Source: a virus (Duplodnaviria > Heunggongvirae > Uroviricota > Caudoviricetes). Taken from it: a DNA stretch of 64,000 nucleotides. The notes beneath the pieces are model-generated. The model had not been told where the DNA came from, did not search any database, and saw nothing but the letters and a program-made list of their open reading frames with translations. The stretch covers positions 64,001 to 128,000 of IMG/VR virus record IMGVR_UViG_3300042988_000374, one strand, 5' to 3'. Made by a program: the position numbers and the translations under genes. Positions 838 to 43,981 of the stretch are shown piece by piece; the first letter of the stretch is position 1; each line of letters starts with the position of its first letter.

Positions 838-2306
838 GAGCACAAGAATTTCAACCCCCAACAATCAAAGTCGGCGATGAAGTCATGCTCGGTAAGTTCA
901 AAAATCGCCGGGCAGAAGTCAAAGGCTTTGCTAAAGACAAGAATAATCAACCCGTATTGCAGACCACCAAGGGTGACACCCAACTATTCAAACCTCGTAT
1001 CAGTAAATTGAAGACTGCTACGACCGAGAGTAGACAAGAGGAACTGTCTCGTCTTGTCAAGATGATGACCACTGGGAAAATTCCATATGACCGTGGCATG
1101 CCATTGTTCCAGACTTATACTCAATCTCAACAACACTTACTGGAGTCTCTAGACCAATCAATTGTTGACTTTGTTCAGAATCTTCAGACTCATAGTCCCA
1201 CAGTTAATGACTCGTATTATGCTATTCCCGTGTGGGTAGTTGGTAATCAGGTGTTTGTTCTAGATTGTGAAGGTAATAATCCACCTACGGCACGTGCGAC
1301 CCCAATCATCGTTATAGCTAATAGCAGTGACCGTCTAAAAATCAAAACACCATCAGGTATAGAAACCACATACCCTTGCAATGACCTCAGTGATATGGGT
1401 TATAACACTGTGATTCTTTGTAAGACAGTCGCCGAATATCAAGCTATGGCCACAATGTTCCTGATGAAATTTGATGTCCATCTTCCAGAGATTGCAGAAC
1501 AAGAACTTGATGAAGGCTGGAAAGACTGGGTAGCTGGCGGAGCAATGGCGCTAGGAGCTCTTGGAGCGCACGGAGACGCAAATGCTGGGTCTAAGTATGT
1601 ACAGACGAAAACAAGCGCTGGTGCGCAGGCACCACAAGGAGTGGGCAGTGCTATCAAAGTAGACAAGAGTTACGCTGAACCAACAACTCAAAAAAGTTCA
1701 GCTAATAGTTCTAAATCACTTGCACAACCTGGCAAATTAGCGCAAAATATCAACAGTACATTTAAGAAGATGACGCCCGAGCAAAGTCGTGGTGGTTATA
1801 CACCGCAGCAGCTTAAAGATTATATTCAAGCAGCAGCTACTAGATACTTACCAGCGGATCAGGTGGCGCGATTCATGGGTGAAGTTGCACACGAGACAGC
1901 TAACTTTACTAGTATGGTTGAGCAGAACCCAGAGAAGAATTTGAAGCATTACGCTAAACGCGGTAACCCACTTGGTAATGCGGATATGAACGATGCGCAA
2001 AAGTACATTGGTCGTGGTTATCTTCAAATTACTGGCAAGTGGAACTATCAACATTTTGGTGATAAGATTCGCGTAGGTCTTGGTGATGAGTTAGTCAAAA
2101 ATCCGGATATGGCACTGCGCCCGGACGTTGCTGCTGCACTTGCAGTAGTATACTGGCGTGAGCGTGTGGCACCAAAAATGGACGCTGGTGCATCTAGCAA
2201 GTCAATTGCTACTGCTATCAATGGTAAGAAACCAAAAGGTCTAAAGAGTAGAGAAGCATATACACGTCAAGCGGCCGCTGACTTGAGAAAGAATAAACGA
2301 TCATGA
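834..2306 (+). CDS. Modular virion protein with C-terminal GH19 lysozyme/chitinase-like muralytic domain
   Basis: RFMGEVAHETANF and KYIGRGYLQITGKWNY are GH19 signatures. An ELDE|GWKDWVAGGAMALGALG segment precedes the domain. ATGA overlap with the upstream stop. Confidence 0.85.
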   Translation: MRAQEFQPPTIKVGDEVMLGKFKNRRAEVKGFAKDKNNQPVLQTTKGDTQLFKPRISKLKTATTESRQEELSRLVKMMTTGKIPYDRGMPLFQTYTQSQQHLLESLDQSIVDFVQNLQTHSPTVNDSYYAIPVWVVGNQVFVLDCEGNNPPTARATPIIVIANSSDRLKIKTPSGIETTYPCNDLSDMGYNTVILCKTVAEYQAMATMFLMKFDVHLPEIAEQELDEGWKDWVAGGAMALGALGAHGDANAGSKYVQTKTSAGAQAPQGVGSAIKVDKSYAEPTTQKSSANSSKSLAQPGKLAQNINSTFKKMTPEQSRGGYTPQQLKDYIQAAATRYLPADQVARFMGEVAHETANFTSMVEQNPEKNLKHYAKRGNPLGNADMNDAQKYIGRGYLQITGKWNYQHFGDKIRVGLGDELVKNPDMALRPDVAAALAVVYWRERVAPKMDAGASSKSIATAINGKKPKGLKSREAYTRQAAADLRKNKRS

Positions 2307-4240
2307 GAGCAAAACAGTTTACCCGACCGTCAGAAATAGTTGATGAAGCCAAGATGAATCCTGGTGAGTTTGAGAAGGCGATTCAGTCTGGTCACGAGGC
2401 TGGTGTGCTAGTTGGTTATGAATTTGAGGTTTGTATACCATATGGTACATTTGGTGATGGTGAAGAGGGCGAAGGTGCTATTAATCGGGACTGGATGGCA
2501 GAGTTCTTTGTGAATCACAACTACTTTACTGAAATTACACTTGGTCATATTTCACCAGCAGAGCTAGATTCAGTATTCACATTCAAAGACGAAGCCAACC
2601 CACGATTCAAGACGTTTACCGATGCGACTGATGCCGTCTTACGTGAACGAATTGAAGAAGTTAAGCAAATGTTTTCCGCGTTAGCCGATGACGTGCGCGC
2701 CGAATTAGTAACTGATGCGAAGAACTATTTGAATAAGATTGACCGCTCAAATGAAGTCCGTTATACCACCAACGATGATCTCCATGAAGAATATATGTTT
2801 GCTCGTACACTTACACGCTTTGCGCAGCATCGTAATCGTGAGTTACGTGCTCCTGATATGGGCATTGAACTAGACGATGTGTTCAGAGCTATCTTTGGAA
2901 TGAATAGCGACACTATTGACTCTGACATCAATCACTTTTTTGATTATGACCCAGCTAAAGTGTTTGAAGAACTCCAGTTAGACGACTGGGCAGACAGCGA
3001 CTATGATGACAACAACTCACACTACAGAGCAGGTGCACAATTCTTAGCTGATGTATTACAACACAATTTTGGCACTGATGTCCACATCTTTGATAGCTAT
3101 CATGAGTTTAACAAGAATGCAACTGACTGGTACATCGAGCCTGATGGTAGCTTACGTTCAAATGATGATAGTGATGTAGCACTTGAGATTGTGTCGCCGC
3201 CTTTAGCTGCCAAGGACGCCATCGCAGCTATTACTAAGTTTTATAGTATAGCTCGTCGTTACAGTCTTTACACTAATGATTCAACCGGTCTCCATATTAA
3301 CGTTAGTATACCACGAACACTTGATGTGCTTAAACTAGCCTTATTCTTGGGTGACGCGCACGTGCTACAAATATTCAAACGCGAGAACAATGATTACGCA
3401 GTGTCAATCATGAATCAGTTACAAAGGCGTTTGGAACGTGGTGGCGGTGGTGTTATCAAAGCAGGAACTAAGAATGACGATGGTTCTGTAGAGCAGTCAT
3501 CAACTATTGATTTAAACATGTTGAAAAAGGTAGCAGAAGACATCTCTGGCGGACACACGGTGAGTATCAGTAACAATGGCAACTACATCTCTTTTAGACA
3601 TGCTGGTGATGACTATCTACAAAACAATAAAGACGTGATGGACGTTATCGGTCGCTTTGTTCGCTCTATGATTATCGCTAGTGATCCAGAAGCATATAAA
3701 CAAGACTACTTGAAGAAGTTGTATCAACTAACCGCAGCTTCTGGTGGACACACAAAGCAACTAATAGCATCAGGTGATATCGCACTACAATCACTACAAG
3801 ACATTCGCACAAATGGTGTGCCAACAATCACAGCGTATGTTTACTGTCCATCTGGGCGCGTAGATATTGAACGTTTGAGCAAAAGAATCGCGCAGAATTA
3901 TGCTGGTGAATTCAGCATATCAACAGTAGCAGCATCATCTAAAGCACAATCAGTTTTAGGTTCACGCTCCAAGTCAGTTGGTATCTCGCGAGTGATATCA
4001 GACGCAGCTTCAGATATGTTTTTTGAAGTAGTAATCTATCCAAACGTGTTTAATTTACCTGTGTTCCAGCAGCCACAACCAGATACGATTCAACACGTAG
4101 TTGTAGCTACTGTAGACGACTACGGTTACTATACTGTAGTAAACACACGCGCGGCAATCGATACAAATAAGAGTACACGTGGACTGGTATCAAAATTAAT
4201 ATCTACGTACAAATCTAGCAAAGGTAATAAACCACAATGA
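2303..4240 (+). CDS. COOH-NH2 ligase type 2 (Amidoligase_2-like) paralog A
   Basis: Motifs VGYEFEV, WYIEPDGSL, LEIVSPP, TNDSTGLHINVS, YISFRH. Confidence 0.85.
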   Translation: MRAKQFTRPSEIVDEAKMNPGEFEKAIQSGHEAGVLVGYEFEVCIPYGTFGDGEEGEGAINRDWMAEFFVNHNYFTEITLGHISPAELDSVFTFKDEANPRFKTFTDATDAVLRERIEEVKQMFSALADDVRAELVTDAKNYLNKIDRSNEVRYTTNDDLHEEYMFARTLTRFAQHRNRELRAPDMGIELDDVFRAIFGMNSDTIDSDINHFFDYDPAKVFEELQLDDWADSDYDDNNSHYRAGAQFLADVLQHNFGTDVHIFDSYHEFNKNATDWYIEPDGSLRSNDDSDVALEIVSPPLAAKDAIAAITKFYSIARRYSLYTNDSTGLHINVSIPRTLDVLKLALFLGDAHVLQIFKRENNDYAVSIMNQLQRRLERGGGGVIKAGTKNDDGSVEQSSTIDLNMLKKVAEDISGGHTVSISNNGNYISFRHAGDDYLQNNKDVMDVIGRFVRSMIIASDPEAYKQDYLKKLYQLTAASGGHTKQLIASGDIALQSLQDIRTNGVPTITAYVYCPSGRVDIERLSKRIAQNYAGEFSISTVAASSKAQSVLGSRSKSVGISRVISDAASDMFFEVVIYPNVFNLPVFQQPQPDTIQHVVVATVDDYGYYTVVNTRAAIDTNKSTRGLVSKLISTYKSSKGNKPQ

Positions 4241-6237
4241 GAGCAAAACAATTTACAAGACCAGTCAAAGAAGAAGTGATTGACGAAGTTCGCATGAGCC
4301 CTAGTGCTTTTGCAAGTGCTGCTAAAGAGGGCAGTGAACTCGGTGTACTAGTTGGTTATGAATTTGAGGTTTGTGTACCATCTGATACAGTGCACGACAA
4401 CTTTAGCTCACCTGAACGCGCAGCACCAGAAGTTAGTGCCGAACGCATTGCTGAAACTATGTATGAAGAATCAACATGGGATGCCCATCCTCCTTGGGAA
4501 TTCACACCACTTCGTTTTGATCGTTACTTCAAGTTTAAAGAAGGTAAGTCTAAGTATCCAAACATGGTAGCAGTATATGATGACTGGCGCGAATCAGCAC
4601 TACAAAAAGCTCGTCATCTAATCGCTGAATTACCAGAAGACCTTCGTAATGAAATGAACGTCGAAGCAGAAAAGCTAGTCGATAGTGAACATTATGAGAG
4701 TATGCGTCAGGCGATTGATGACGATGAGTTGTTCTTGGCATTCTGTTTTGGTAAATCTCTGTATCTCAAAGGCAGTAATCGTGAACTAGAGCGCAAGGGT
4801 ATTGATATCTATACTGTTGCAAGGTCTACATACGATGACTTATTTGAAATGGCATTTAGTGAAGACCCAGGTGACGTTGTTCGACAACTCTATGTTTATT
4901 TGGACTTTGATCCAGAAACAGTCTATGACGCATTTGACTTGTCACGCTATGAGCCCGATGACGAAGAAGACGAGTATGACTTTAGTGGTTACAACTCCGG
5001 GTACAAACGCGCTGCTTTTGTTATGAAGGAACCAATTGCTGATGCATTCGGCGCTGATGTAAATATCTTCTCTAACTATCATCAATCAACTAAGAACATG
5101 CATGACTGGTATATCGAACCAGATGGCTCACTTGAACCTAATGATGACGATGAAGCGCTAGAGATAGTATCTCCTCCAATGCCAGCACAGGCCGCAGTTA
5201 AAGCTATCTCTACGTTTTATAGTATCGCTGAGCGATATCAATTATATACCAACAGAAGCACCGGTCTCCATATTAACGTTAGTATACCGAAAACACTTGA
5301 TGTACTTAAATTAGCAGTGTTCTTGGGTGATCAATATGTGTTAAAGTATTTTGGTCGTCAAGACAATAGTTATGCACGAAGCATGATGGCTGCTATGAAG
5401 AGTACGATTAGTGATCGTAGAAAAGTATCTGGCGCGTCACAACCGGCTACTGCTGCTGGTACTTCAGATGGTGAAGGCGGTACTCTAGCTACTACTCAAA
5501 TCGACTATGGCTTGCTGGCTTCAATGGCAAAGAACATCTCTAATCAACACACTATCAGTATCTCTGGTGAATCTGGTAAGTACATCTCATTTAGACACGC
5601 TGGTGGTAACTATCTCAAGGATAAACAAGGCGTAGTAAACGTAGTTGGTAGATTCATTCGCGCTATGATTATCGCTAGTGATCCAAACGCTTATCGTAAC
5701 GAGTATCTGAAGAAAGTATACCAGCTACTTGGCAATAGTATTAATCCATCTCGTAACAATCGCGCAGATGCGTTGAATTACCTACGTGAAAAAGGTGCAC
5801 CAGTTGTGAAGATTGATCTTGTAACTAAGGGCGAAGCTCCTACACCGGAGATGATTATGACTATCGCACGTAACACTGGTCTGTCAGATGGTTCCATTGC
5901 GCACGAAATTGCACCGAACCCAGGTGGCGCAGAGGCAGCTGCTGCTGCAATGATTCGCGTAGTACGTGGTGCCAATGCTCGTGCATGGGTAGACAATTCT
6001 GAAGATGCACACTGGTTCACGGTGGCTCTATATCCAACTGAACAGAATATTGATCGCTTTATTCGTTATCAACCAACTGGTGGTATTCAACGTACGGTAG
6101 CTGGCGGCAGCACTAGTAGTTACTATCTACCGGAGAAGATTCACATCAACTATCTAGACAACAAGTATACAAGAATGCTTCAAGGTCAGTTGATGAGAGC
6201 ACAACGCGCGGCGCGTACAACTGGTGGCACACAATGA
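4237..6237 (+). CDS. COOH-NH2 ligase type 2 (Amidoligase_2-like) paralog B
   Basis: Motifs VGYEFEV, WYIEPDGSL, LEIVSPP, TNRSTGLHINVS, YISFRH. Closest to paralog A, with the same MRAKQFTRP start. Confidence 0.85.
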   Translation: MRAKQFTRPVKEEVIDEVRMSPSAFASAAKEGSELGVLVGYEFEVCVPSDTVHDNFSSPERAAPEVSAERIAETMYEESTWDAHPPWEFTPLRFDRYFKFKEGKSKYPNMVAVYDDWRESALQKARHLIAELPEDLRNEMNVEAEKLVDSEHYESMRQAIDDDELFLAFCFGKSLYLKGSNRELERKGIDIYTVARSTYDDLFEMAFSEDPGDVVRQLYVYLDFDPETVYDAFDLSRYEPDDEEDEYDFSGYNSGYKRAAFVMKEPIADAFGADVNIFSNYHQSTKNMHDWYIEPDGSLEPNDDDEALEIVSPPMPAQAAVKAISTFYSIAERYQLYTNRSTGLHINVSIPKTLDVLKLAVFLGDQYVLKYFGRQDNSYARSMMAAMKSTISDRRKVSGASQPATAAGTSDGEGGTLATTQIDYGLLASMAKNISNQHTISISGESGKYISFRHAGGNYLKDKQGVVNVVGRFIRAMIIASDPNAYRNEYLKKVYQLLGNSINPSRNNRADALNYLREKGAPVVKIDLVTKGEAPTPEMIMTIARNTGLSDGSIAHEIAPNPGGAEAAAAAMIRVVRGANARAWVDNSEDAHWFTVALYPTEQNIDRFIRYQPTGGIQRTVAGGSTSSYYLPEKIHINYLDNKYTRMLQGQLMRAQRAARTTGGTQ

Positions 6238-6758
6238 AGATAAGCGAAGTACTAAACGAAGAAGGCAGGCGCCGTAACTTGTCAATCTATTACTTTGCGT
6301 ACGGTATGCTCACAGATCCGGAGTACATGGGCAAAGTTGATGCAAGAATGGTAGGTCGTGCTACACTCGATGGCTACACGTTAGAGCTATTCTTACACGC
6401 TAACGTACACAAGGGCAGTGGCTCGGTCACTGGCACACTGTGGCAAATCGACAGCGCGATGTTAGCTGACTTAGATCGCACAGAAGGTTACCCAGATTAT
6501 TATACACGCAAAATCGTACCAGTTTACTGTGATGCCACCGACCGTGAGTACCGCGCAGTAATCTATGTAATGACACCAGATAGTCGAGAAGATTCAGCTG
6601 GCCGAGTCCCATCACCACGCTATATTCAAATGATTGCTAACGGCTATCAACACGCTGGAATCTCGTTAAATCAACTGGTAAAAGCTGTGGAATCTAACAA
6701 AAAGAACGCAACTCACACACAATCATCTCATGACGACCCAGAAAACGAATGGTTATGA
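6234..6758 (+). CDS. Gamma-glutamylcyclotransferase (GGCT/AIG2-like)
   Basis: YYFAYG loop, VTGTLWQI, DLDRTEGYPDYYTR with the catalytic Glu, PSPRYIQMIANGY; N-terminal MKISEVLNEE tag. Confidence 0.85.
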   Translation: MKISEVLNEEGRRRNLSIYYFAYGMLTDPEYMGKVDARMVGRATLDGYTLELFLHANVHKGSGSVTGTLWQIDSAMLADLDRTEGYPDYYTRKIVPVYCDATDREYRAVIYVMTPDSREDSAGRVPSPRYIQMIANGYQHAGISLNQLVKAVESNKKNATHTQSSHDDPENEWL

Positions 6759-9421
6759 AGGCTACCGAGATTAAATCTTATGAACTTAGATTCAGTCAGA
6801 CTCCTAGAACCATTCAGACGATAGCTGAACAACTCACCCAGTACTTCAGAGCTACCGGAATCCGTGGTTGGCCCACGTCATCGTCTATATTGAGTACTTA
6901 CTGTGAACGTGTTGCTACTGGTACGCTCCTAGAGAGCGAGACGATGAATGCGCTAGAGCGATTCCAGCGTAATATAGCACAGCTAGACCAGCGTAGTACT
7001 CTGAGAATAACAGTTGGTTCCAAATTATCCGTACTTCAATTTTATCCCCATACCGCACAAAACTTAATCGAAGTCGTTGGTACCATCCCTACAAAGACGA
7101 TTAAAGAGATTCACGCATATATGTATGGTGACACCATAGATAGCATCGAATTCACTGATGGTAGCACGTATCCAGACGCTCAATTCTTAGATAGAGGGCA
7201 AGGTGGTGGTCCACTTGATGGTATTACTACATTATTCTTCGGAGATGCGGCTAGTGCTGATAATGCGCTAACACTTGCATCTATGTATTGCGAGAATCCA
7301 TGGTCCATATCGTCACACAACGTAGAAGTTATCGGTGAATCAACCACGCATAAATACAAGATGAAATTCGAAGATTTTGCCCCAAAACAAACACAGCAAT
7401 TAGATGAAGTCCGTATGGGCGCATCTGACCTAGACAAATTCGCAGCGGAAACAAACGGCGTAATGGCCGGTTTCGAAGCGGAATTATGCTTTCCGGGTCT
7501 ATCAGGTACGTCAACTGAAACAGATTATGACAACCCTGAAGAAGACATGGACCAAGATACCAGACCAGATAGTATTGAAGAGATTTGTGACTTCTTCTAT
7601 GATGGCGACTACAACGGCCGTCGTGAGATTCAGTCACTACGTGAACATCTAAACGAAGTGTACAGTGAATGGCGCTATGAGAGATTATCTGGTGTATGGG
7701 AAGAAGTTAAAGAACAAAAGGTTCGCGAATATATCGAAGAGAATGATTACTCATTCGAAGACGAAGTCCGTGAGTACTTAGAAGATACCCTAGAATTAGA
7801 CAGAGAGCAAGCACAATCAATCATCGATGCCGGTGAAGACTCCGAGATACCAGAACAAGCTGCGCTATTCAAAGAAGCGGCTGACCATGCCAATAACGTG
7901 CTTAATGAATTGACCCAAGAAGCGCTAGATGATCAAAACTACAGTTATGACCGCGCCCGTGAAGAATGGGAAGATGAGTACGCTGATGACGAAGAAGCGG
8001 ATGAAGAATCATGGTTACGTGATCTTGGTGTGCGTTGGATGAGTGAAGTACCATCTGAGTTCAACAATCGTAACGTTAGTATATCATGGCCACACTGGAC
8101 ATATCCAGAATCTGAAAGTGAAGGCGGCTTCAATGAAGATGCTGCTCGTGACTTAGCTAGTGAATTAGCAGACGCACTAGGCGTTAATGTTCGTGCTGGT
8201 AGTGGTTATCATTCAATCAGTCGTCGACCTGGTCTTTGGATCATCGAAGCTGACAGTAGTTTAGAAGCTGATGATAGTGACGACATGCCAGCAGAAATTG
8301 TATCACCGCCTATGCCATTAGCAGAGTGTTTGACACAAATGCAAAAGTTCTTTGAATGGGCAGCATCTCAAGGCGCTTATTCAAATTCAAGTACTGGTCT
8401 ACACGTTGGTGTATCGCTACCTCACGTCGGTGGCAATGTTGACTATTTGAAGTTAGCACTGTTTTTAGGTGATCAACACGTATTACAAGAGTTTGGTCGC
8501 GAATCAAATTACTATGCTCGTAGTGCACTTGAAAAAGTTCAATCTCAAGTACAAAGCATGACTGAAGGTTCTCGCATCGCTGACACACTCAAGGTGCTTC
8601 AACATGGTTTAACAGAATTAGCACAGAAGACATTAAAGACAAATGCAAACGGTTATGGTAAATATACCTCCATCAATCCGAAGGGCGACTATATCGAATT
8701 TAGAAGTATGGGCAATGACTATATGGAAAAGACTGATAAAGTTCTTGAGGTCGTTAAGCGCTATGCTTATGCAATGTATATCGCTGGTCGTCCTGACCTA
8801 CACAAACAAGAGTACTCTAAGAAGCTATACAAGTTGTTGAGTTCAACTGGTGTCAAGATGCCAACTGCTATTGAATTGTTCTCTAACTTCAGTAGTGGTC
8901 AGTTAGACAAAGAATCATTGATTCGTCAAGTTCGCGCAATTCAAAGCAAGCGCCCTGGATTCGACGCAGCTGCACAACAAAAGAGTGCTGGTCTAACTGG
9001 TCCAGAACTAAGTGGTGATAGCTGGTTCGTTCGACCATACAACAACGCTGGTAGTGAAGTTCAACTTCGCGCTGATAGTGCTATTGAAGCTCTTGCTAAA
9101 GCTAAGCAAATGCGCCCAGATATCTTTGGTAACCTGCGAGACAATGAGATTGAAATTCGCGGTAGTAACGGTGACTACACACGTGCGTACACATTGACTC
9201 TTGACAATGGTAGTAGTAACAGCGGTGCTGGTAATGCTGGTAATGCTGGTCGTGAATTCATTGGTTGGAAGATTGTAGACGCAGTGCGCACTATTCACGA
9301 ATTCAGTGGCATTGGTAACAATCAAGCAGACGCTAATGCATTTGCAAGACGCTGGATCGCACAGAACGGTAACAACTTCGCTGTTGTAGGCGAATTGTCG
9401 GTAGTACCTAACTTTAGATAA
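6755..9421 (+). CDS. Fusion of an unnamed N-terminal domain and COOH-NH2 ligase paralog C
   Basis: Start probably at 6755 (MKATEI, ATGA overlap). Ligase motifs AGFEAEL, WIIEADSSL, EIVSPPM, SNSSTGLHVGVS, YIEFRS; large acidic insert. Confidence 0.85.
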   Translation: MKATEIKSYELRFSQTPRTIQTIAEQLTQYFRATGIRGWPTSSSILSTYCERVATGTLLESETMNALERFQRNIAQLDQRSTLRITVGSKLSVLQFYPHTAQNLIEVVGTIPTKTIKEIHAYMYGDTIDSIEFTDGSTYPDAQFLDRGQGGGPLDGITTLFFGDAASADNALTLASMYCENPWSISSHNVEVIGESTTHKYKMKFEDFAPKQTQQLDEVRMGASDLDKFAAETNGVMAGFEAELCFPGLSGTSTETDYDNPEEDMDQDTRPDSIEEICDFFYDGDYNGRREIQSLREHLNEVYSEWRYERLSGVWEEVKEQKVREYIEENDYSFEDEVREYLEDTLELDREQAQSIIDAGEDSEIPEQAALFKEAADHANNVLNELTQEALDDQNYSYDRAREEWEDEYADDEEADEESWLRDLGVRWMSEVPSEFNNRNVSISWPHWTYPESESEGGFNEDAARDLASELADALGVNVRAGSGYHSISRRPGLWIIEADSSLEADDSDDMPAEIVSPPMPLAECLTQMQKFFEWAASQGAYSNSSTGLHVGVSLPHVGGNVDYLKLALFLGDQHVLQEFGRESNYYARSALEKVQSQVQSMTEGSRIADTLKVLQHGLTELAQKTLKTNANGYGKYTSINPKGDYIEFRSMGNDYMEKTDKVLEVVKRYAYAMYIAGRPDLHKQEYSKKLYKLLSSTGVKMPTAIELFSNFSSGQLDKESLIRQVRAIQSKRPGFDAAAQQKSAGLTGPELSGDSWFVRPYNNAGSEVQLRADSAIEALAKAKQMRPDIFGNLRDNEIEIRGSNGDYTRAYTLTLDNGSSNSGAGNAGNAGREFIGWKIVDAVRTIHEFSGIGNNQADANAFARRWIAQNGNNFAVVGELSVVPNFR
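7350..7356 (+). promoter_or_regulatory. Intragenic T4-late-type promoter 4 nt before an in-frame ATG at 7361
   Basis: ATAAATA-CAAG-ATG. The downstream MKFEDFAPKQTQQLDEVRMG mirrors the N-terminus of paralog D. Confidence 0.6.
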
Positions 9422-9426
9422 TCAAC

Positions 9427-11643
9427 ATGAAATTTACTGAATTTGAACCAAAAAAAGTAGAACAGTTAGATGAAGTCCGTATGGGCCCATCAGACTTAGA
9501 TAAGTTTGTTAATAGCGAAGACGCTACTGGCATTCAGGCAGGCTTTGAAGCGGAATTATGCTTCTCAAATCGTGCTGGTGACAATGACGATGGTGAAGTA
9601 GAAGAAGATTACAGCGAAGATGAGCGCGTATCTGATATCCGAGATATTTGCCGATTCTTCTCCAATAACGACTACAACAGCCGTCGTGATGTTGAAAATC
9701 TACGTGAAGAAATGTCAGAGACCTACTACGAATGGCGTGGCGAAAAGATGAGCGATGCTTGGATGGAAGTCGAAGAGTCTGAGGTAGAGTCTTATATCGA
9801 AAACAATGACTACACATTTGAAGATGAAGTCGAAGAATACCTGAGAGACGAGTTAGATTTAAGCGCAGAAAAAATTAAAGAAGTACTAGCAGTTGGTGAC
9901 ACCGTTCGACGTGCTCATAGTATTGCTGCTCGTACTGAATTAGAAAATAATGACCCACGAGTGACAGTTTACTTAGAAGCAGCTGATCATGCCTATGATG
10001 TATTAGCTGACCTTGTCAAAGATGCTATCAATAATCACGACCATAGCTATAGATCAGCTTATGAAGACTGGGAATCAGAACACGAGGACGATAGCGACTG
10101 GGATGAAGATCACTGGTTAGACTCTATCGGTGTTCACTATATGAGTGATGTGACATCACACTTTGGACACGTTACTTGGCCATACTACACATCTAGTAGC
10201 AGCGACGAGGGCGGCTTCAATGAGCACAGCGCAAATATGCTATCTGATAGTATGGCCTCCAAGTTAGGTGTACGTTCACGTGCTAGTTCTGGTTATCATT
10301 CGGCTACCAGATCACCTGGTCTTTGGATCATTGAACCAGATAGTAGTTTAGAAGCTAGTGATCCATATGATATGCCAGCAGAAATTATCTCTCCTCCAAT
10401 GCCGCTACAAGAATGCTTAGAAAAAATGAAGAGATTCTTTGAATGGGCCAAGAGTGAAAAAGCATATTCGAATGAGAGTACCGGTCTGCACGTAGGTGTA
10501 TCGCTACCACGTGTCGGTGGTAATGTTGACTATTTGAAGTTAGCACTGTTCTTAGGTGATCAACACGTGCTAGAAACATTCGGTCGCGAGTGTAACACTT
10601 ATACTCGTTCAGCGTATGAAAAGATTGCTGACCAAGTTAAAACTAATGGTGCAGATAATCGCGTGACTGACACACTTAAAGTGCTTCAACATGGTCTCAC
10701 TGAACTAGCTCAAAAGACACTCAAAACTAATGCTAATGGTTATGGTAAATATACCTCGATTAACCCCAAGGGCGAGTATATTGAATTTAGAAGCATGGGC
10801 AACAATTACATGGAGATGACAGATCAAGTAATTGAAATTGTCAAGCGTTATGCTTATGCCATGCACATTGCCAGTCGTCCAGAATTGCACAAGCAAGAGT
10901 ACTCTAAAAAGCTATACAAGTTGTTAAGTTCAGTTGACAAGAGCGCACCAGTAGATACTATCAAACTATTCTCTGCATTTAGCTCAGGCAGCTTAAATAA
11001 GACCACGCTTGTTAGTATGCTGCGTACCATTCATGCTTCACGCAAGCCAGCCCCTCCTAGTGGCCCTGGCACGTATGAAATGTATCGTATCAGTGATGGA
11101 CGGACAATGTCGGCTGGCGGCAAGGAAGTTCAGTTTAACGCAAACAGTGAAGAAGAAGCTCAGAGTATGATTGCTCATTATGCTCAAGAATACCATTTAG
11201 GTGCACCACAATTATTTGCTGTGCGTTCTGTAGTTAAGCCATCTGGTAAAGCATATCAGATATATCGGAATGACACTGGTAATACATTGACTAGCTTTTT
11301 TGCTGGCAGTGACAGAGAGGCAATTGCTATCATGAATAATCGCGTGGCTAGAATGGCACCAGAAACGCGAGCGCTGTTCTCTATTCGCGTAGAGGGCAGC
11401 AATACTGCACTAGCACACGGCGGTGGAGGTGAAGGTGCTGGTGTACAGGACAGTGATGGTGTTATCTATCGTGTTTATGATACTCGTGATGACTCCAGAA
11501 CTACAATCGGTAGATTCCGCGCTACTCCAGCTAATGCTCAGCGTAACTTCACTGCCTATACACAGGGCGTGACACCGCAATACAGACAGCATTTAGAGTA
11601 TGAAGTTGAAACTCAGAGAGTCGATCCAAATACAGTTGACTAA
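9427..11643 (+). CDS. COOH-NH2 ligase type 2 paralog D with C-terminal repeats
   Basis: Motifs AGFEAEL, WIIEPDSSL, EIISPPM, SNESTGLHVGVS, YIEFRS; three short YxxY..F repeats at the C-terminus. Confidence 0.85.
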   Translation: MKFTEFEPKKVEQLDEVRMGPSDLDKFVNSEDATGIQAGFEAELCFSNRAGDNDDGEVEEDYSEDERVSDIRDICRFFSNNDYNSRRDVENLREEMSETYYEWRGEKMSDAWMEVEESEVESYIENNDYTFEDEVEEYLRDELDLSAEKIKEVLAVGDTVRRAHSIAARTELENNDPRVTVYLEAADHAYDVLADLVKDAINNHDHSYRSAYEDWESEHEDDSDWDEDHWLDSIGVHYMSDVTSHFGHVTWPYYTSSSSDEGGFNEHSANMLSDSMASKLGVRSRASSGYHSATRSPGLWIIEPDSSLEASDPYDMPAEIISPPMPLQECLEKMKRFFEWAKSEKAYSNESTGLHVGVSLPRVGGNVDYLKLALFLGDQHVLETFGRECNTYTRSAYEKIADQVKTNGADNRVTDTLKVLQHGLTELAQKTLKTNANGYGKYTSINPKGEYIEFRSMGNNYMEMTDQVIEIVKRYAYAMHIASRPELHKQEYSKKLYKLLSSVDKSAPVDTIKLFSAFSSGSLNKTTLVSMLRTIHASRKPAPPSGPGTYEMYRISDGRTMSAGGKEVQFNANSEEEAQSMIAHYAQEYHLGAPQLFAVRSVVKPSGKAYQIYRNDTGNTLTSFFAGSDREAIAIMNNRVARMAPETRALFSIRVEGSNTALAHGGGGEGAGVQDSDGVIYRVYDTRDDSRTTIGRFRATPANAQRNFTAYTQGVTPQYRQHLEYEVETQRVDPNTVD

Positions 11644-11664
11644 ACTCTGAACCAGTGATATACT
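11636..11664 (+). promoter_or_regulatory. Sigma70-type promoter, probably leaderless
   Basis: TTGACT-N17-TATACT-N6-ATG(11671); no SD. Confidence 0.7.
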
Positions 11665-11670
11665 ACACAT

Positions 11671-11844
11671 ATGTCTAAAGCACCAGAGTTTAATTTTGAA
11701 GTTGTAACCCAAGAAGATCCAGAAACCGGCGAATTAATTTTGCCGATACCGGCTGAATTGCTGCGTGAGATGGGTTGGAGCGCGGGTGATGAATTATCTT
11801 TTGATCTGGATGACAAAGGACGATGGATTATCAGCAAAAAATGA
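11671..11844 (+). CDS. AbrB/MazE/SpoVT-like small DNA-binding protein (57 aa, missed by ORF track)
   Basis: Translated by hand: [57 protein letters not shown]; the LxLPIPxxL..xGWxxGDxL pattern. Confidence 0.7.
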   Translation: MSKAPEFNFEVVTQEDPETGELILPIPAELLREMGWSAGDELSFDLDDKGRWIISKK

Positions 11845-12461: not shown

Positions 12462-12468
12462 ATAAATA
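12462..12468 (+). promoter_or_regulatory. T4-late-type promoter
   Basis: ATAAATA 21 nt before ATG 12490, with AGGA SD. Confidence 0.65.
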
Positions 12469-12489: not shown

Positions 12490-12654
12490 ATGAAGATCAG
12501 TGAAGTATTAAACGCTCGGGTAGAAGCCTGGGGCTACGTGTATGATAGACGCGACACACGTGTGATGTGGCGCAGGGAATTCCCATCTGAAGAGGCGGCT
12601 CATGCATGGGCAGACTCTAAGAACGCTACTATCATGGGAATTAAAGCACTATGA
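12490..12654 (+). CDS. 54-aa tagged small protein (missed by ORF track)
   Basis: MKISEVLNARVEAWGYVYDRRDTRVMWRREFPSEEAAHAWADSKNATIMGIKAL; ATGA overlap with the next gene. Confidence 0.7.
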   Translation: MKISEVLNARVEAWGYVYDRRDTRVMWRREFPSEEAAHAWADSKNATIMGIKAL

Positions 12655-13385
12655 AGATTAATGAAGTGCTCGGTGGTCTCCGCAAGTATGAGTTTAATTT
12701 AGCTCTATTTGAGAGTGAGCTAGGACCAATCAATCTCAACAATATTAGTATTACTAAAAATCAACACGTCATTCATTATCTGATGCGTAATTATCCTGGA
12801 TCAGATCCGTTTGCCATATTCAACAATGCAATCGAAAGAAAAATCCATCAGATTGACGGCAGTGCCACAATTATGGAATCAGCGACATTGACTGACGCGC
12901 TTAATGATTACTTTGACAAGTTCAATCAATTTAATACCGGTATAAAGGTTAAACCGGGCGATAAACTAGTAGTGCTCGAATTAGACGCATTTATATTGCT
13001 AGGTAAATCCAACGTGACTTTAGAAGGCTCAATGGTACCACGCACGGTATACTCAGTTAGTGCGCACAATGTTCAATTTACAGATGGTTCCTCGTACCCA
13101 ACTCGTACTGCAAAAATGCCCATGCGCTGGCAGCAAGTTATATTCTTCAAGGACACTGAGGCAGCGCGGCAGTGCGTCACTCTATTTAGATTACTGGAGC
13201 AGCAATCTGGTGTTGTCAGGTTGTCAGTGGGAGTAGACGACACTCTAGAAGAGCACATTGTCAAAGTCAAAGGCGGATACGAACTCCGCTCTAAAAAGGG
13301 CAATAAAAATCTAGGTAAATATCCCACAAGAGCTGGTGCTGAAAAGCGAGAGCGACAAGTTCAATACTTTAAACATGCCAAATAA
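12651..13385 (+). CDS. Tagged modular head protein with the shared unnamed domain and a basic C-terminal module
   Basis: MKINEV start, QFTDGSSYP motif, LEE|HIVKVKGGYELRSKKGNKNLG tail. Confidence 0.6.
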   Translation: MKINEVLGGLRKYEFNLALFESELGPINLNNISITKNQHVIHYLMRNYPGSDPFAIFNNAIERKIHQIDGSATIMESATLTDALNDYFDKFNQFNTGIKVKPGDKLVVLELDAFILLGKSNVTLEGSMVPRTVYSVSAHNVQFTDGSSYPTRTAKMPMRWQQVIFFKDTEAARQCVTLFRLLEQQSGVVRLSVGVDDTLEEHIVKVKGGYELRSKKGNKNLGKYPTRAGAEKRERQVQYFKHAK

Positions 13386-15047: not shown

Positions 15048-15092
15048 AGTATAACAGACTTCGTGCTGGTTGTCAATAGTATTTGATAAATA
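15048..15092. promoter_or_regulatory. Back-to-back divergent promoters, both apparently leaderless
   Basis: Minus strand: TTGACA-N17-TATACT-N6-ATG(15041). Plus strand: ATAAATA(15086-92)-TCAT-ATG(15097). Confidence 0.7.
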
Positions 15093-15096
15093 TCAT

Positions 15097-16401
15097 ATGC
15101 GAATATACGAAATTTTAGGCGAAGGTCAACAAAGTTTATGGCAAGATGAAGTTTGGCCATCCGAAATTGGGCCAAGAAAAAAGTCCTACGATAAGCTCAA
15201 TGCGTTTAGAAAGTTCAAGAGTGGTCCAGATCAAGTGCCAGCGAGAGACTTCGGCGACGATGAAGTTCATATAGATAATGCGTCACCAAATAATCACATT
15301 CAATTTCAGAAACAGAATGCTCCTAGAACAGCAGCGACAACTACTAAGATACCAGACATCGCTATAAAAGGTAATGGAATGTTGAGGAAGACTCCTGAGG
15401 AGCAACAACAGCATTTGGACAGAGTTAGACAACTTTACAGCATCATTGGTACACAGGCGATTGAACACAACAAGCAACCTCTATATGCTTATTACGGTGA
15501 TGATACTTTTGGATGCTCAGTCAAAACTGATAACGGCATCAAAATAGGTACTGGGCCATTAAAGGGACCCACTGGCCAATTGGGCTATTTTTTCGACAAT
15601 ATACCAGAAGACGGCTTTGATGTCATTAAAGAAATGATGGTAGACGCCGGATATACCTTTTCAGCGTCGGCCCAAACAAAACTAAGATTCATACCACCGA
15701 CGCAAGATTTAACTAGTATAGCAGATGACTTCTGGAGCATTATTAATAGAGTTGAAGAGTTAGGTGCTGATTTTAAATCTAAGATTACGCCTGCTGGTGC
15801 ATCTTCTGGTGTCGGTAATGGAGCAGGCTCACTTATCACTGGTAAACAGGCACCGTATCAATACTACAAATGGTTAGCATCAAATATATACGAATCCGTC
15901 AAAAACAACACATCATGGGGATTTTCGCGCGGCGGTAGTGACAGTGGCGGCGCATACGATAGATACGATCATCACATCATCATTGGTATTACCAAGGGTG
16001 GATTAGAACAAAAAGCAGCAGGAAGAGAGCCATATCGAGAGCACATTGTACCGTGCGATTTAATTAATCGTATGGCCATTGATATATGTAAACGTAGTCC
16101 TAAGGGCAATGCCCATCGTAATCAAGTGATCATGGAAGTGGCAAAGATGATTCATCGCAATCTCGCAATCGTACTATGCTCATCTAACCCAGAATCTGGA
16201 CCAGACAGAGATAGAGCTAACGACGGTGACCGCGAAAAGATTGATTTTGATAATGGCTTAAAGACAACCATGCCACCTGGGTGGAAGGATGGGGACAGTA
16301 TACTGGCACGTTTTAGTTACTGTGACATACCAGTATACCGAAACATAAAGAATCACCCATCTAATGGTAAACGGTTAACTGAGACTGGTGATTGGGAATA
16401 A
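15097..16401 (+). CDS. Tagged head protein with a possible His-Me-finger (EHIVP) C-terminal domain
   Basis: Start MRIYEILGE|G; YREHIVPCD...NLAIVLC...MPPGWKDGDSILARF. Confidence 0.5.
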   Translation: MRIYEILGEGQQSLWQDEVWPSEIGPRKKSYDKLNAFRKFKSGPDQVPARDFGDDEVHIDNASPNNHIQFQKQNAPRTAATTTKIPDIAIKGNGMLRKTPEEQQQHLDRVRQLYSIIGTQAIEHNKQPLYAYYGDDTFGCSVKTDNGIKIGTGPLKGPTGQLGYFFDNIPEDGFDVIKEMMVDAGYTFSASAQTKLRFIPPTQDLTSIADDFWSIINRVEELGADFKSKITPAGASSGVGNGAGSLITGKQAPYQYYKWLASNIYESVKNNTSWGFSRGGSDSGGAYDRYDHHIIIGITKGGLEQKAAGREPYREHIVPCDLINRMAIDICKRSPKGNAHRNQVIMEVAKMIHRNLAIVLCSSNPESGPDRDRANDGDREKIDFDNGLKTTMPPGWKDGDSILARFSYCDIPVYRNIKNHPSNGKRLTETGDWE

Positions 16402-37003: not shown

Positions 37004-37801
37004 TTATTTCTTTGCTTTCTTCTTGGGGATACAATTAGGAACTGGTTTACCATTTTCACCATCTTTCATACCGATTTGAGTGAAGTTCTTCCAGCAGTCT
37101 TCTTTAGCAATGATGTCTTTATCGGCGGGCTTCTTACTTAGTTCAGTATCTTTCTTCTGTCCTTTTTTGAAGACATCTAAGTCGCGCTTCAAGCGTTGAG
37201 CAATCATTTCCTCTGATAGTTCACTCTCATCAACTTTATGCTTCTTGGTATCGTTGTCGAACTCTCGCTTAGTAGCCTTGACGATGCCCCGGAAGCGCTT
37301 GTTACCACGTTCGTAGTCTTTGTCCTTGTCAGCAGTGGATGCATCGGCGCCTGCTGCTTTTTTATAATCAGCTAATGTTTGAGGGCTTAGCTCATTGAGT
37401 TGACTTTCGTTAGTTTGGGGCTGCCACCAGCGGCCTTGACCAAACTCTCTGTCAGCACCTTGCTTTTGCATATCAAATGATCTGCCTGAGGTGGTATACT
37501 TTGCTTTAGCCCATTTACCGGACTTTGTTTGTTTGACGCCGTATTGAGCGGCAGTATCTTCTTGTCCAGCTGGTACATTGTAGAAATACATACCGACTAA
37601 TACTGGACGGTCAGACGGCGCTTGGTATGGGCGCTGTGGTTCTTGACTGTGGCCTTCGTCATTGGCTCCACCGTCTTGACGATACGCTTCTGAATCATGC
37701 TTGCGCATACCATAAGTTGATGCGTACTGATCTCTACCGTAGGCCGCGCGGTTACCTGGCGAGCGATAGTGACCTTCTTTGATAAATTCATATGTTTTCA
37801 T
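37004..37801 (-). CDS. Tagged modular internal head protein
   Basis: MKTYEFIKE resembles the T4 IPII/IPIII capsid-targeting MKTYQEFIAE. Modules are separated by LNE, VDE, LSE and AKE; C-terminal CWKNF..GKPVPNC module. Confidence 0.7.
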   Translation of the reverse strand: MKTYEFIKEGHYRSPGNRAAYGRDQYASTYGMRKHDSEAYRQDGGANDEGHSQEPQRPYQAPSDRPVLVGMYFYNVPAGQEDTAAQYGVKQTKSGKWAKAKYTTSGRSFDMQKQGADREFGQGRWWQPQTNESQLNELSPQTLADYKKAAGADASTADKDKDYERGNKRFRGIVKATKREFDNDTKKHKVDESELSEEMIAQRLKRDLDVFKKGQKKDTELSKKPADKDIIAKEDCWKNFTQIGMKDGENGKPVPNCIPKKKAKK

Positions 37802-42415: not shown

Positions 42416-43981
42416 TCACTTCCTGAATTTACCGTCAGTCCTGCTCACTTGGGGGCGACCATCACGAGCGATATTGCCAAGGCCCAGCGCAATTGCCGAC
42501 TTTTTCATGGTATCTGGACGCACATCTACCGATAGGGCACGTTCCCATCGTGGATCAGACTTCTCCGACTCACTTGGGATGTAGCCAGAGCATTCGGCCA
42601 GTTGACTTTCATTGAACCGGCGACTAAAGCGCGTAGCAAAACTTTCACCGGGGAAGTCGATTGTCCACCCATCATAAGTGTGATTACCCTTAGCATCATC
42701 AACACACTTCAACATGATATAAGTTAAACCCTCAGAGGCTACTCCGGGCTCCGTTACAAGTTTAAGAATAACTTTTTGGGACTCATACTGGGTGTTGTAA
42801 ATTTCACCAGCAGTTGACATAAACATGGCATGGCCGTCCTTTGTATGTCGAACTTCAGCTATTTCAATTGATTCAATCAGATTGATACCAGCAAGATGAA
42901 CCGCCCTCTGCTGTACCTCTACTATGTCAACAGTCATACCAGCTTTGATCTCTGCTGCAGGTAGCCCTTCACCAAATGCAGCCTCCAGTAATTCATTAAG
43001 CGTGTTTACCTCAGCAGACTCACAAAACTCGAACTTCCTTTTCCAGATGTTTTCATACAATTCTGCGTACAATGGTCCGGACGACATCTCAAGATCCCAG
43101 CAGTGACGCAGAATCTTCTGCCCGTAATCGTGCTGTATTTGTTGGTTATTGTGGTAATCGTCGTAACTAGGCACATCACTGAAGTCAAATTCAGTTTTTT
43201 TTAGATAGCGCTCAAAACTTTCAAAGATGTCACTCACATCCGGTGACACCAGGGGTGCAGTTCCACTCTCTTCATCAATACTGAGTGATTTACCACGTAA
43301 ACGGTCTCGCTTGCGGTATAACTGGTCAACTAGTCCACTTGAACGCAAGGATTTATAAGAAATATTCTCGCTGCTGAATTCACCACCTTTTTCAAGACCA
43401 GCAGCACGATATCGCTTAACCGTATCAATCACCGAGTTAATAGCCTCGAGATTATTGCTTCGTAGAGCCAATCTAGCCACCGCCGCCAGCTTTTCAAACT
43501 TTTGAGCGACATCTGGAGTATCAATTTTAGCAGTCCGCTTTACTGGGAATTTAATCCACTTATCGTCTTTGACACTGTACTCACCAAGGCTGCGAACCAC
43601 ATCGGAGGCATCCTGAATATACAATTCTACGTCTAGACCGCGTACGGTAATCTTGTGCTGCATATTGTAAATTGTCTTTTTGCTGGTAAATAACTCTCTA
43701 TAAACATCACTGTCAGAGATAGCGCTCATGTCCACTAATAAGTGTAGGTCAATGTCACTGTGTGACGTGTAAGTATAGGCAGCATTCGAACCATAAAGTC
43801 TGACATCAACTACTTTAAGGTGACTTAATCCCATGAATTCTTCAAAGTCGGCCGCAATCTCCATCAACTGTGAACGAACGTCCGCCTGTAGTTTGGAGTC
43901 TTTAAACAAGGCCCCATTCAGTTCATCATGGAACTGGACAGCGCTGTCTAGATTGTAGGATTCAATGTCTGATATCTTCAT
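42416..43981 (-). CDS. Tagged Pol-beta-superfamily nucleotidyltransferase fused to the shared unnamed domain
   Basis: LYGSNAAY..SDIDLHL (hG[GS]..DxD) and DVELYIQD; MKISDIE start; TTAAATA-CAGT-ATG. Confidence 0.7.
   Translation of the reverse strand: MKISDIESYNLDSAVQFHDELNGALFKDSKLQADVRSQLMEIAADFEEFMGLSHLKVVDVRLYGSNAAYTYTSHSDIDLHLLVDMSAISDSDVYRELFTSKKTIYNMQHKITVRGLDVELYIQDASDVVRSLGEYSVKDDKWIKFPVKRTAKIDTPDVAQKFEKLAAVARLALRSNNLEAINSVIDTVKRYRAAGLEKGGEFSSENISYKSLRSSGLVDQLYRKRDRLRGKSLSIDEESGTAPLVSPDVSDIFESFERYLKKTEFDFSDVPSYDDYHNNQQIQHDYGQKILRHCWDLEMSSGPLYAELYENIWKRKFEFCESAEVNTLNELLEAAFGEGLPAAEIKAGMTVDIVEVQQRAVHLAGINLIESIEIAEVRHTKDGHAMFMSTAGEIYNTQYESQKVILKLVTEPGVASEGLTYIMLKCVDDAKGNHTYDGWTIDFPGESFATRFSRRFNESQLAECSGYIPSESEKSDPRWERALSVDVRPDTMKKSAIALGLGNIARDGRPQVSRTDGKFRK

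Follow-up and report, generated by a model that had tools for sequence, protein, structure and literature searches.

Organization of the locus

The subject of this study is a cluster of four predicted amidoligase genes (ligA to ligD) and one gene for a gamma-glutamyl cyclotransferase (GGCT), carried by an uncultured virus known from the IMG/VR record IMGVR_UViG_3300042988_000374. The window, i.e. the whole stretch of 64,000 nucleotides that was analysed, comprises bases 64001-128000 of this 149,889-bp viral contig, which CheckV rates as 42% complete, a value that places the phage genome at roughly 350 kb. On the strength of its sequence, we regard the virus as a jumbo phage of the T4 superfamily and its ligase/GGCT operon as late-type. 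When the 9.3-kb region was compared by megablast with 50,697 phage records, no match was obtained.

The five genes lie within a run of eight genes whose products share an N-terminal sequence tag, and a T4-late-like promoter (GATAAATAC) stands in front of this run. The operon's second tagged gene (1-837; plus strand, like all operon genes in the window) starts at an ATG 5 nt before the window and encodes a 280-aa protein beginning with MKISEVIINETIQLDE, which belongs to no Pfam family. Both a paralog of this protein (genome positions 63145-63993) and the late promoter (genome position 63116) are found just upstream of the window. The next gene encodes a GH19 muramidase-like protein of 490 aa (834-2306; PF00182, phrog_181), with a C-terminal GH19 domain and an ATGA overlap at both ends. 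It is followed by ligA (2303-4240, 645 aa) and ligB (4237-6237, 666 aa), both of the subtype that we call type 1, by the gene for the GGCT, a GGACT/AIG2-type enzyme of 174 aa (6234-6758), and by ligC and ligD (9427-11643, 738 aa), both of type 2. These open reading frames (ORFs) occupy the positions given in the initial annotation, including that of ligC at 6749-9421. For the latter gene we revised the start: the ATG at 6755 overlaps the GGCT stop codon as ATGA, following the same rule as the four preceding junctions, and most likely it is this codon, rather than that at 6749, which initiates a product beginning with MKATEI (6755-9421). The first five gene junctions of the operon are such stop/start overlaps, and the arrangement suggests a late-transcribed, translationally coupled unit.

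The architecture of ligC is composite: a domain of about 200 aa is followed by the sequence QLDE/VRM (here and below a slash marks a proposed cleavage point) and by the ligase domain. The N-terminal domain is paralogous to the product of a gene located downstream of ligD (12651-13385; P0130; E 7e-8; shared motif FTDGS[ST]YP). Directly past the ligD stop codon there is a strong sigma-70-like promoter (11636-11664, plus strand; TTGACT-17-TATACT, extended TG), recognized by consensus match only, which would mark the end of the late operon and the beginning of a differently regulated unit. Within 11636-11720 (plus strand) this promoter is followed by a small ORF, which starts MSKAPEFNFEVV...LPIPAELLREMGW and looks AbrB/MazE-like by eye.

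Identity, fold and phylogeny of the ligases

Three of the four ligases exceed the cut-off of 22 bits for PF12224 (Amidoligase_2), namely LigA (27.9 bits), LigC (33.6 bits) and LigD (26.9 bits). LigB falls below Pfam reporting but is assigned to phrog_2443, an amidoligase family of PHROG, and shows 35% identity to LigA along the full length. The profile search that had been proposed along with the initial annotation has in this way placed LigA, LigC and LigD, as well as the GGCT (through PF06094), and with LigB added through phrog_2443 and its similarity to LigA we regard these gene identities with great confidence. Among 8,000 candidates scored, 443 ligase homologs were found at E <= 0.001, nearly all of them unnamed metagenomic proteins, and most of the top 120 carry a precomputed PF12224 label. 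The only cultured phages with a homolog detectable by tblastn are Atu_ph07 and RsoM2USA.

The motif set ascribed earlier to the four paralogs is indeed preserved: G.E.E.C, YH, W.IE.D.SL, EI.SPP, STGLH and Y.I.FR are invariant in the four-way alignment, and these positions stay unchanged in an alignment of 58 homologs (21-46% identity) which includes both subtypes and in which 24 residues are invariant. Among the 24 are E40, E42, E279, D281, E295, H331, R360, R432 and R451, predicted to bind the metal, ATP and the substrate; they may correspond to individual residues of glutamine synthetase (GS). One motif, Y.[SE]FR, distinguishes the subtypes, with Ser in type-1 (Y.SFR) and Glu in type-2 ligases (Y.EFR).

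The AlphaFold (AF2) model of LigA (pLDDT 86.4) shows a catalytic domain with the GS fold (residues 19-480), in which a helical insertion of about 190 aa follows the first strand, and a C-terminal alpha/beta domain (residues ~490-641). With VIA-align, residues 19-480 of the model could be superposed on some 50 entries of the GS family, glutamine synthetases as well as gamma-glutamyl-amide synthetases (Z 10.7-12.3, 180-200 aligned residues, root-mean-square deviation 3.3-5 A), while the top entries of a Foldseek search against the AlphaFold database (AFDB) clusters were named amidoligase (E 5e-6 to 1e-3). The fold assignment rests on these two results, because Foldseek against the PDB alone gave weak matches (E about 0.07) and the ligase family profile found no chain at E <= 1 among all PDB sequences. 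The structural check suggested for the ligases, carried out with LigA, therefore points to a GS-like fold, and the four proteins are best described as Amidoligase_2 enzymes with a GS-like catalytic domain that are predicted to form amide bonds at the expense of ATP. The fold search listed GS-type entries only, a result that would still allow a PafA/Dop-like identity; two short ORFs nearby, of 54 aa and 130 aa, were inspected for a Pup-like substrate, and neither ends in a Pup-like motif (Gly-Gly-Gln/Glu).

It could be argued that the four ligases are catalytically dead internal head proteins, a structural or DNA-packing filler built on the ligase fold. The Pfam match covering only profile positions 17-118 of 245, the long acidic helical insertion and the Ser of the type-1 Y.SFR motif would all suit such a role. 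The invariance of the predicted catalytic acidic, His and Arg residues throughout homologs as divergent as those described above, in both subtypes, would be unexpected for pseudoenzymes, and we consider this explanation highly improbable.

In a maximum-likelihood tree the ligases form two deep clades (support 100/100). LigA and LigB are sisters (98/97), as are LigC and LigD (100/98; 55% identity), which agrees with the earlier description of two pairs placed around the GGCT gene. About ten related contigs encode one type-1 and one type-2 ligase each; therefore, the ancestral unit was a heterotypic pair, duplicated to two plus two in the present phage. The C-termini of the ligases are variable and different from one another, as had been noted, and that of LigD consists of short repeated modules. 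The C-terminal tails, the N-terminal domain of LigC and several of the tagged neighbours match no Pfam family.

The N-terminal tag and the putative cleavage site

The first residues of all eight operon products conform to M-[KR]-x-x-[EQ]-[FVI], and [LIV]-x-E comes next. Tag and site are represented in the ligases by MRAKQFTRPSEIVDE/AKM (LigA), MRAKQFTRPVKEEVIDE/VRM (LigB) and MKFTEFEPKKVEQLDE/VRM (LigD), giving a site of the general form [LIV]DE/[AV][KR]M, and in the GGCT by MKISEVLNE/EG, with LNE/E. The products of the two genes preceding the GH19 gene begin with MKI[KS]EVI...IQLDE/G. The initial annotation had assigned a head-protein tag and/or a [LIV]DE-type site to each of the four ligases and the GGCT, and this holds, with two amendments. 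The GH19 neighbour, whose tag is MRAQEF, has VGDE at its N-terminal site instead of [LIV]DE, and LigC, besides the internal MKFEDF...QLDE, gains a tag of its own (MKATEI) through the revised start.

In phage T4, diverse proteins reach the prohead core by means of a capsid targeting sequence (CTS) of 10 residues, which gp21 takes off again by cutting after L/I-x-E (PMC9026906, PMC3012670, PMC10229621). The tag described here resembles both the T4 sequence, which is MKTYQEFIAE at the N-terminus of IPII and IPIII, and the gp21 site.

The frequency of the tag was assessed with the pattern M[RK]xx[EDQ][FLVIW] among distinct ORFs located up to 10 kb from ligase genes in 29 related viral contigs. The pattern opens 105 of the 679 ORFs, a strong enrichment over internal Met positions, where it occurs in 12 of 3519 cases (p 8e-72), and over the whole genome of a 98%-complete relative, with 11 of 448 ORFs (p 3e-14). 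Glu at position 9, which lies outside the selection pattern, is present in 58 of the 105 tagged ORFs against a background of 6% (p 1e-41). When 131 tagged ORFs were pooled, the codons of the conserved positions varied synonymously, and a promoter was situated directly upstream in only 31. The signal therefore lies in the peptide and is not an RNA element, since its codons vary, few of these genes have their own promoter, and translationally coupled genes keep it.

Among the further tagged products encoded in the ligase islands are a GNAT acetyltransferase and two predicted hydrolytic proteins, one of the tail-lysozyme+LysM type and one SleB-like. One recurrent tagged family, often encoded near ligases, has the form MRATEFL[AT]E/[GA]ATP[VI]L[FY]HY...ILKDG.F (L005:11941-12594, L005:12594-14708, L009:7463-8341, L020:11845-12723 and L024:8377-9270, where the letter L denotes individual loci); its members are sometimes fused to LysM and tail-lysozyme domains, and the N-terminal domain, without a Pfam match, may be another enzyme. 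Phage PA5oct was dropped as a calibration set for the tag, with three pattern matches against three in the reversed control, i.e. no enrichment; one of its matches is a small head-module protein adjoining the portal gene and detected by mass spectrometry.

In the GH19 protein of the window and in that of locus L014, the [LIV]DE site (an internal ELDE in the former) precedes a hydrophobic segment, and in the GH19 orthologs L031:15688-16362 and L010:17024-17668 the tag is followed by a twin-arginine (Tat)-like signal, MRANEFVTE/DMSRRGFLGALGAGAMAASGVAQA. Such segments might direct export either after delivery or in the producing cell.

Late-type promoters

The motif ATAAATA(C), which resembles the T4 late promoter, TATAAATA, is present in 26 copies in the contig, 19 of which lie 4-24 nt before an ATG. 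One copy precedes the first gene of the tagged run. Another, late-promoter-like and located inside ligC, reads ATAAATAC (7350-7408, plus strand) and lies 4 nt upstream of an in-frame ATG at 7361, from which a second, tag-bearing isoform beginning with MKFEDFAPKQTQQLDE/VRM would be produced. In a 354-kb relative (G001), the ATAAATA motif stands before both ligase genes and also before the genes for the portal and for tail-fibre-like proteins.

Examples of the form [GC]ATAAATAC are the sites at 7350-7356, 12462-12468 and 15086-15092, as well as minus-strand copies located shortly ahead of the ATGs at 37801, 44849, 54129 and 62498. Two motif-to-ATG spacings can be distinguished, one of 4-6 nt and one of 16-24 nt with a Shine-Dalgarno-like AGGA/GGAG in between (the slash here separating two variants). 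The shorter spacing suggests leaderless or near-leaderless mRNAs.

Head protease, capsid and presence in virions

Peptidase_S77, the family of gp21-type proteases, is found above the cut-off in three of five large relatives (G001, G003 and G004, of 354, 244 and 228 kb; 1e-25 to 1e-29), and gp23 in four of the five, in three of them at about 1e-98. With PA5oct, Vibrio phage 2.275.O and Rak2-like coliphages, the 354-kb relative shares 65-70% identity in the capsid protein, and the lineage therefore falls into jumbo-phage subgroup 2.2 of Iyer et al. 2021. Just before its conserved mature N-terminus, the capsid protein of this relative has L-A-E, where T4 gp23 has L-T-E/A.

Atu_ph07, a phage of Agrobacterium, is the only cultured phage with a homolog for which usable virion proteomics exists. 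Its gp196 (AUZ94978.1; 501 aa, 57.9 kDa) starts with MRWQDISSKKLTE/LKM, is encoded two genes from the portal gene, and aligns with the ligase family at an hhalign probability of 99.9 (E 2e-37; PF12224 30 bits). In the electrospray tandem mass spectrometry (ESI-MS/MS) table of Atu_ph07 virions, gp196, annotated as hypothetical, is represented by 14 unique peptides (30.2% coverage; PMC6102473 Table S5). For the numbering of gp196, gp195 (993 bp) and the portal gene gp198 (1755 bp) served as reference points. The product of the gene between the ligase and portal genes, gp197 (L062, 157531-160068; 846 aa), starts with MATEFELE, belongs to no Pfam family and is also present in the virion proteome, with 15 peptides (PMC6102473).

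The suggestion that the tagged enzymes are head cargo is thus supported by the match to the CTS and gp21 site, the late-type promoter, the gp21-type protease of relatives and the detection of gp196 in Atu_ph07 virions. Taken together, we consider their packaging in the virion well supported and likely.

An alternative that explains many of the same observations is that these are late enzymes acting in the producing cell, where, ahead of lysis, their substrates might be virion proteins or the envelope, and that they are no functional cargo for delivery; the shared N-terminus would then serve translation, localisation or export, and the detection in Atu_ph07 would be carry-over. This would suit an operon that contains a GH19 muramidase and comes after a holin-like gene with a transmembrane segment, and it could draw on the Tat-like signals of the GH19 orthologs, on the late promoters 4-6 nt from the ATG, which would let N-terminal codons matter, and on some non-structural proteins in the Atu_ph07 list. 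Promoterless, translationally coupled genes keep the tag all the same, with synonymously varying codons, and Glu9 after L, I or V fits only a protease site read in the peptide. Furthermore, the peptide count of gp196 equals that of the tail fibres, its gene lies in the head module, and fusion proteins (see below) keep [LIV]DE exactly at their domain junctions. Action confined to the producing cell therefore strikes us as unlikely, and a purely translational, localising or exporting role of the N-terminus as similarly improbable.

The cyclotransferase and its link to the ligases

The GGCT is recognized by PF06094 (1.7e-16, 61.3 bits; cut-off 22.8), PF13772 (AIG2_2; 45.7 bits) and phrog_2520 (1.4e-22). 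It contains YFAYGML at residues 19-25 (the YGxL motif). Its catalytic Glu, which had been described as intact, is Glu84 (in DRTEGYP), aligned with the Glu of Bacillus subtilis YkqA (KREGV) in an alignment that also includes YtfP.

In at least 11 of the top 120 ligase homologs a GGCT is fused to the ligase, in the order tag-GGCT-[IV]DE-type-1 ligase (e.g. MRAQDFLAE/AG-GGCT-KDIDE/AAMNP-ligase), and L013 also encodes such a fusion. Tagged GGCT orthologs adjoin ligases in L010 and L031. GGACT genes situated elsewhere in four large relatives were rejected as ligase partners, being untagged and of another subtype. The 1:1 fusions show a functional GGCT-ligase link, in which one GGCT would operate with each type-1 ligase. 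A coupled or editing pair explains these fusions no less well than an antagonist does, a writer/eraser relationship being also possible.

Fusions of another kind occur in giant proteins of relatives (1485-2082 aa), in which a nucleotidyltransferase-like domain is followed by LDE/VKM and a type-2 ligase. Both architectures fit polyproteins cut at [LIV]DE by the head protease. In the window, the gene at 42416-43981 (minus strand) encodes a protein of 520 aa (phrog_36119) with faint Pol-beta nucleotidyltransferase matches, whose domain ends in a cleavage-like LSIDE; residues 1-236 are 44% identical to the N-terminal domain of the giant type-2 ligase proteins (L023, L010, L025, L029 and L030).

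Coupled ligase and GGCT activities might also be directed at small molecules. The pair could gamma-glutamylate polyamines or other amines in the manner of PuuA or GlnA3, which we judge quite improbable; equally improbable is a ligase-GGCT cycle that makes 5-oxoproline from glutamate and ATP, or degrades glutathione-like thiols, and so shifts host metabolism. The closest structures do include a gamma-glutamylmethylamide synthetase and a gamma-glutamylating 1-naphthylamine synthetase, enzymes of the GGACT family use free gamma-glutamylamines, as is generally accepted for that family, and the 1:1 fusions fit a coupled two-step pathway. A few injected enzyme molecules would, on expectation, be unlikely to move large metabolite pools, and the two deep subtypes, the variable C-terminal domains and the effector-like fusions look directed at macromolecules.

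The pairing of Amidoligase_2 with AIG2/GGCT in phage operons of the phiEco32/LUZ24 type, to which the initial annotation referred, is in print (PMC5498523, PMC3890496). The cassette of phiEco32, LUZ24 and RIO-1, which combines both enzymes, has been read as serving peptidoglycan modification, a role that was guessed (PMC5498523, citing Hardies et al. 2013). By analogy, the ligases and GGCT of the present phage, whether delivered or made late, could remodel peptidoglycan precursors or stem peptides, for instance through addition or removal of gamma-linked residues, so that host proteins would not be the target; the purpose might be an altered cell surface or cooperation with co-tagged wall hydrolases. 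Co-tagged neighbours here and in relatives (GH19, Phage_lysozyme2+LysM and SleB-like Hydrolase_2) would agree with this. Several observations speak against it. The initial annotation had noted that the window holds no glutamine amidotransferase or ATP-grasp gene, and this extends to the whole 150-kb contig: GATase_6, ATP-grasp_4 and COOH-NH2_lig (PF13522, PF13535 and PF14395) gave no match there, a result that covers 42% of the genome and is weak for PF14395, whose control matched nowhere. The podovirus cassette is found among early genes, whereas the operon described here has late-type promoters and tags, and its peptidoglycan role is itself hypothetical. In addition, GGCT chemistry requires a free alpha-amino group on the gamma-glutamyl residue, and the D-isoglutamate of peptidoglycan is without one. 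We therefore regard remodelling of peptidoglycan as unlikely, and the surface-altering or hydrolase-assisting purposes attached to it as equally so.

Proposed mode of action

Judged by the evidence from tags, promoters and relatives, the tagged ligases and GGCT are probably virion cargo that enters the host along with the DNA. In the model we favour, the N-terminal M-[KR]-x-x-[EQ]-[FVI]... peptide would act like the T4 CTS and bring each product into the prohead core, where a gp21-type prohead protease would cut after [LIV]-x-E, leaving the mature enzymes in the head until they exit the virion together with the DNA. In the ATP-containing cytoplasm of the host, both ligase subtypes would activate a carboxylate, most likely that at the gamma position of glutamate, as an acyl-phosphate and couple it to amine acceptors. 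The GGACT-type cyclotransferase, as partner of the type-1 ligase, would have gamma-glutamyl-amine bonds as its substrate and set free 5-oxoproline, thereby editing or reversing the mark. Glutamate is the best guess for the donor because each of the close structural neighbours activates its gamma-carboxylate and the partner family cleaves gamma-glutamyl-amine bonds. Cleavage and ejection are inferred here, as are the donor (glutamate), the acceptor and the part played by the GGCT.

Our confidence differs between the parts of this model. For the whole chain, from tagging, cutting and ejection to ligation and the GGCT role, we lean slightly towards its being correct. That gamma-glutamyl chemistry is exerted on host targets, as first suggested, is a tentative and rather doubtful proposal. 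In its most specific form, injected type-1 and type-2 ligases, often with a GGACT-type cyclotransferase, would write and proofread a new amide mark (e.g. gamma-glutamyl-lysine) on host proteins; this is a speculative and fairly unlikely extension. If true, it would mean that targets such as defence, transcription or translation factors are marked within seconds of entry, by an injected post-translational modification system comparable to T4 Alt and based on new chemistry.

Several findings count against delivery and ligation as outlined. Neither gp21 nor gp23 was found in the phage's own 150-kb contig (42% complete), and the protease is therefore inferred from relatives whose ligases are 26-46% identical. 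Conservation also extends to the residues [AV][KR]M.P immediately behind the proposed cut, which in the model pack against the domain, so that [LIV]DE could be a structural element of the ligase and not a protease site. A Tat-like signal placed right after the tag of GH19 orthologs fits export in the producing cell as well. The Atu_ph07 particles were purified with polyethylene glycol, and their protein list includes non-structural proteins, e.g. topoisomerase IV subunit A (PMC6102473); carry-over is a possible explanation for gp196. If the Glu of Y.EFR corresponds to a GS metal ligand, the type-1 site would be altered. Finally, a GGCT lies beside or is fused to a ligase in only three of 29 related loci, and the near-complete relative G001 has the ligases together with a GGACT gene that is untagged and distant.

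Further tagged genes and neighbouring features

Three other genes of the window encode tagged products and are candidates for additional head cargo. The gene at 15097-16401 (plus strand; MRIYEILGE/G) and that at 37004-37801 (minus strand; MKTYEFIKE/G) each have the ATAAATA motif directly upstream, and the third is located at 35953-36561 (minus strand; MKISEIINE/G). The products of the two minus-strand genes belong to no Pfam family.

Downstream of the operon, behind a late-type promoter, a gene for a 54-aa protein (12490-12654, plus strand) beginning with MKISEVLN... resembles the repeat modules of the LigD tail. Directly after it lies the gene at 12651-13385 (plus strand; 244 aa), already mentioned in connection with LigC, whose product starts with MKINEVLGG...

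Comparison with known systems

Phage amidoligase cassettes were reportedly described from genomes by Iyer et al. in 2009 (Mol Biosyst 5:1636), and modules that combine an amidoligase with a GGCT have been on record in phage genomes since that year. The operon shares with the phiEco32/LUZ24/RIO-1 cassette the linkage of Amidoligase_2 to AIG2/GGCT in a phage genome and the predicted gamma-glutamyl amide chemistry. The podovirus cassette differs in including a class-II glutamine amidotransferase, an ATP-grasp protein and a PF14395 ligase, all early genes present in single copies and lacking a capsid tag, whereas the present phage has four ligases of two subtypes, with late promoters and tags.

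With GlnA, GmaS, PuuA-type enzymes, GCS2/YbdK and PafA/Dop, the ligases have in common the catalytic fold (Z about 12 over 190-200 residues), and their acidic, His and Arg residues are consistent with acyl-phosphate chemistry. Unlike glutamine synthetase and the carboxylate-amine ligases, they lack an N-terminal beta-grasp domain, carry the insertion of ~190 aa after the first strand, match no PDB chain in sequence and have no Pup-like partner among the small neighbouring ORFs.

The 1500-2080-aa proteins of relatives, in which Pol-beta-nucleotidyltransferase-like, ligase and other domains are joined, recall the polyvalent proteins (Iyer et al. 2017, PMC5512222) in being presumably delivered with the DNA and cut up. 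The domains in the window are mostly encoded by separate genes, and processing would be performed by the head protease at [LIV]DE, not by embedded peptidases. The polyvalent-protein paper names no amidoligase or GGCT domains (PMC5512222), and the ligases are not discussed in the comparative jumbo-phage paper of Iyer et al. 2021.

The closest parallel to the proposed cargo is provided by T4, in which IPI, IPII, IPIII and Alt are CTS-tagged or propeptide-bearing head proteins, processed by gp21 and ejected, Alt setting the example of an enzyme that is injected and acts on host proteins by modifying them. The T4 sequence MKTYQEFIAE can be set beside MKTYEFIKE, MRATEFLAE and MKISEVLNE of the present lineage, all ending in L/I-x-E; in both cases unrelated cargo proteins have the tag alone in common, expression is late in T4 and, judged by the promoter motif, probably so here, and gp21 and gp23 are present in the lineage. 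In contrast to T4, the proposed cargo comprises GS-fold ligases of large size (58-100 kDa) together with a cyclotransferase and wall hydrolases, all known from their genes; the ligase tag is extended to 15-17 residues; and the tagged genes form long coupled operons or encode polyproteins of several domains that contain internal [LIV]DE sites.

The earliest weapons of a phage include enzymes that the virion delivers, such as T4 Alt. The clade-wide T4-type tags, the late promoters and the homolog in Atu_ph07 virions would place this ligase family at the moment of entry, and Atu_ph07 growing on Agrobacterium tumefaciens C58 offers a tractable test system. The 9-residue tag ending in L/I-x-E appears to mark a large, mostly uncharacterised set of cargo proteins, including wall hydrolases, a GNAT acetyltransferase and nucleotidyltransferase-like domains, and could serve to list candidate injected effectors straight from metagenomes. 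The pairing of ligase and GGCT was already known; what is new is that it can be recast as probable T4-type capsid cargo.

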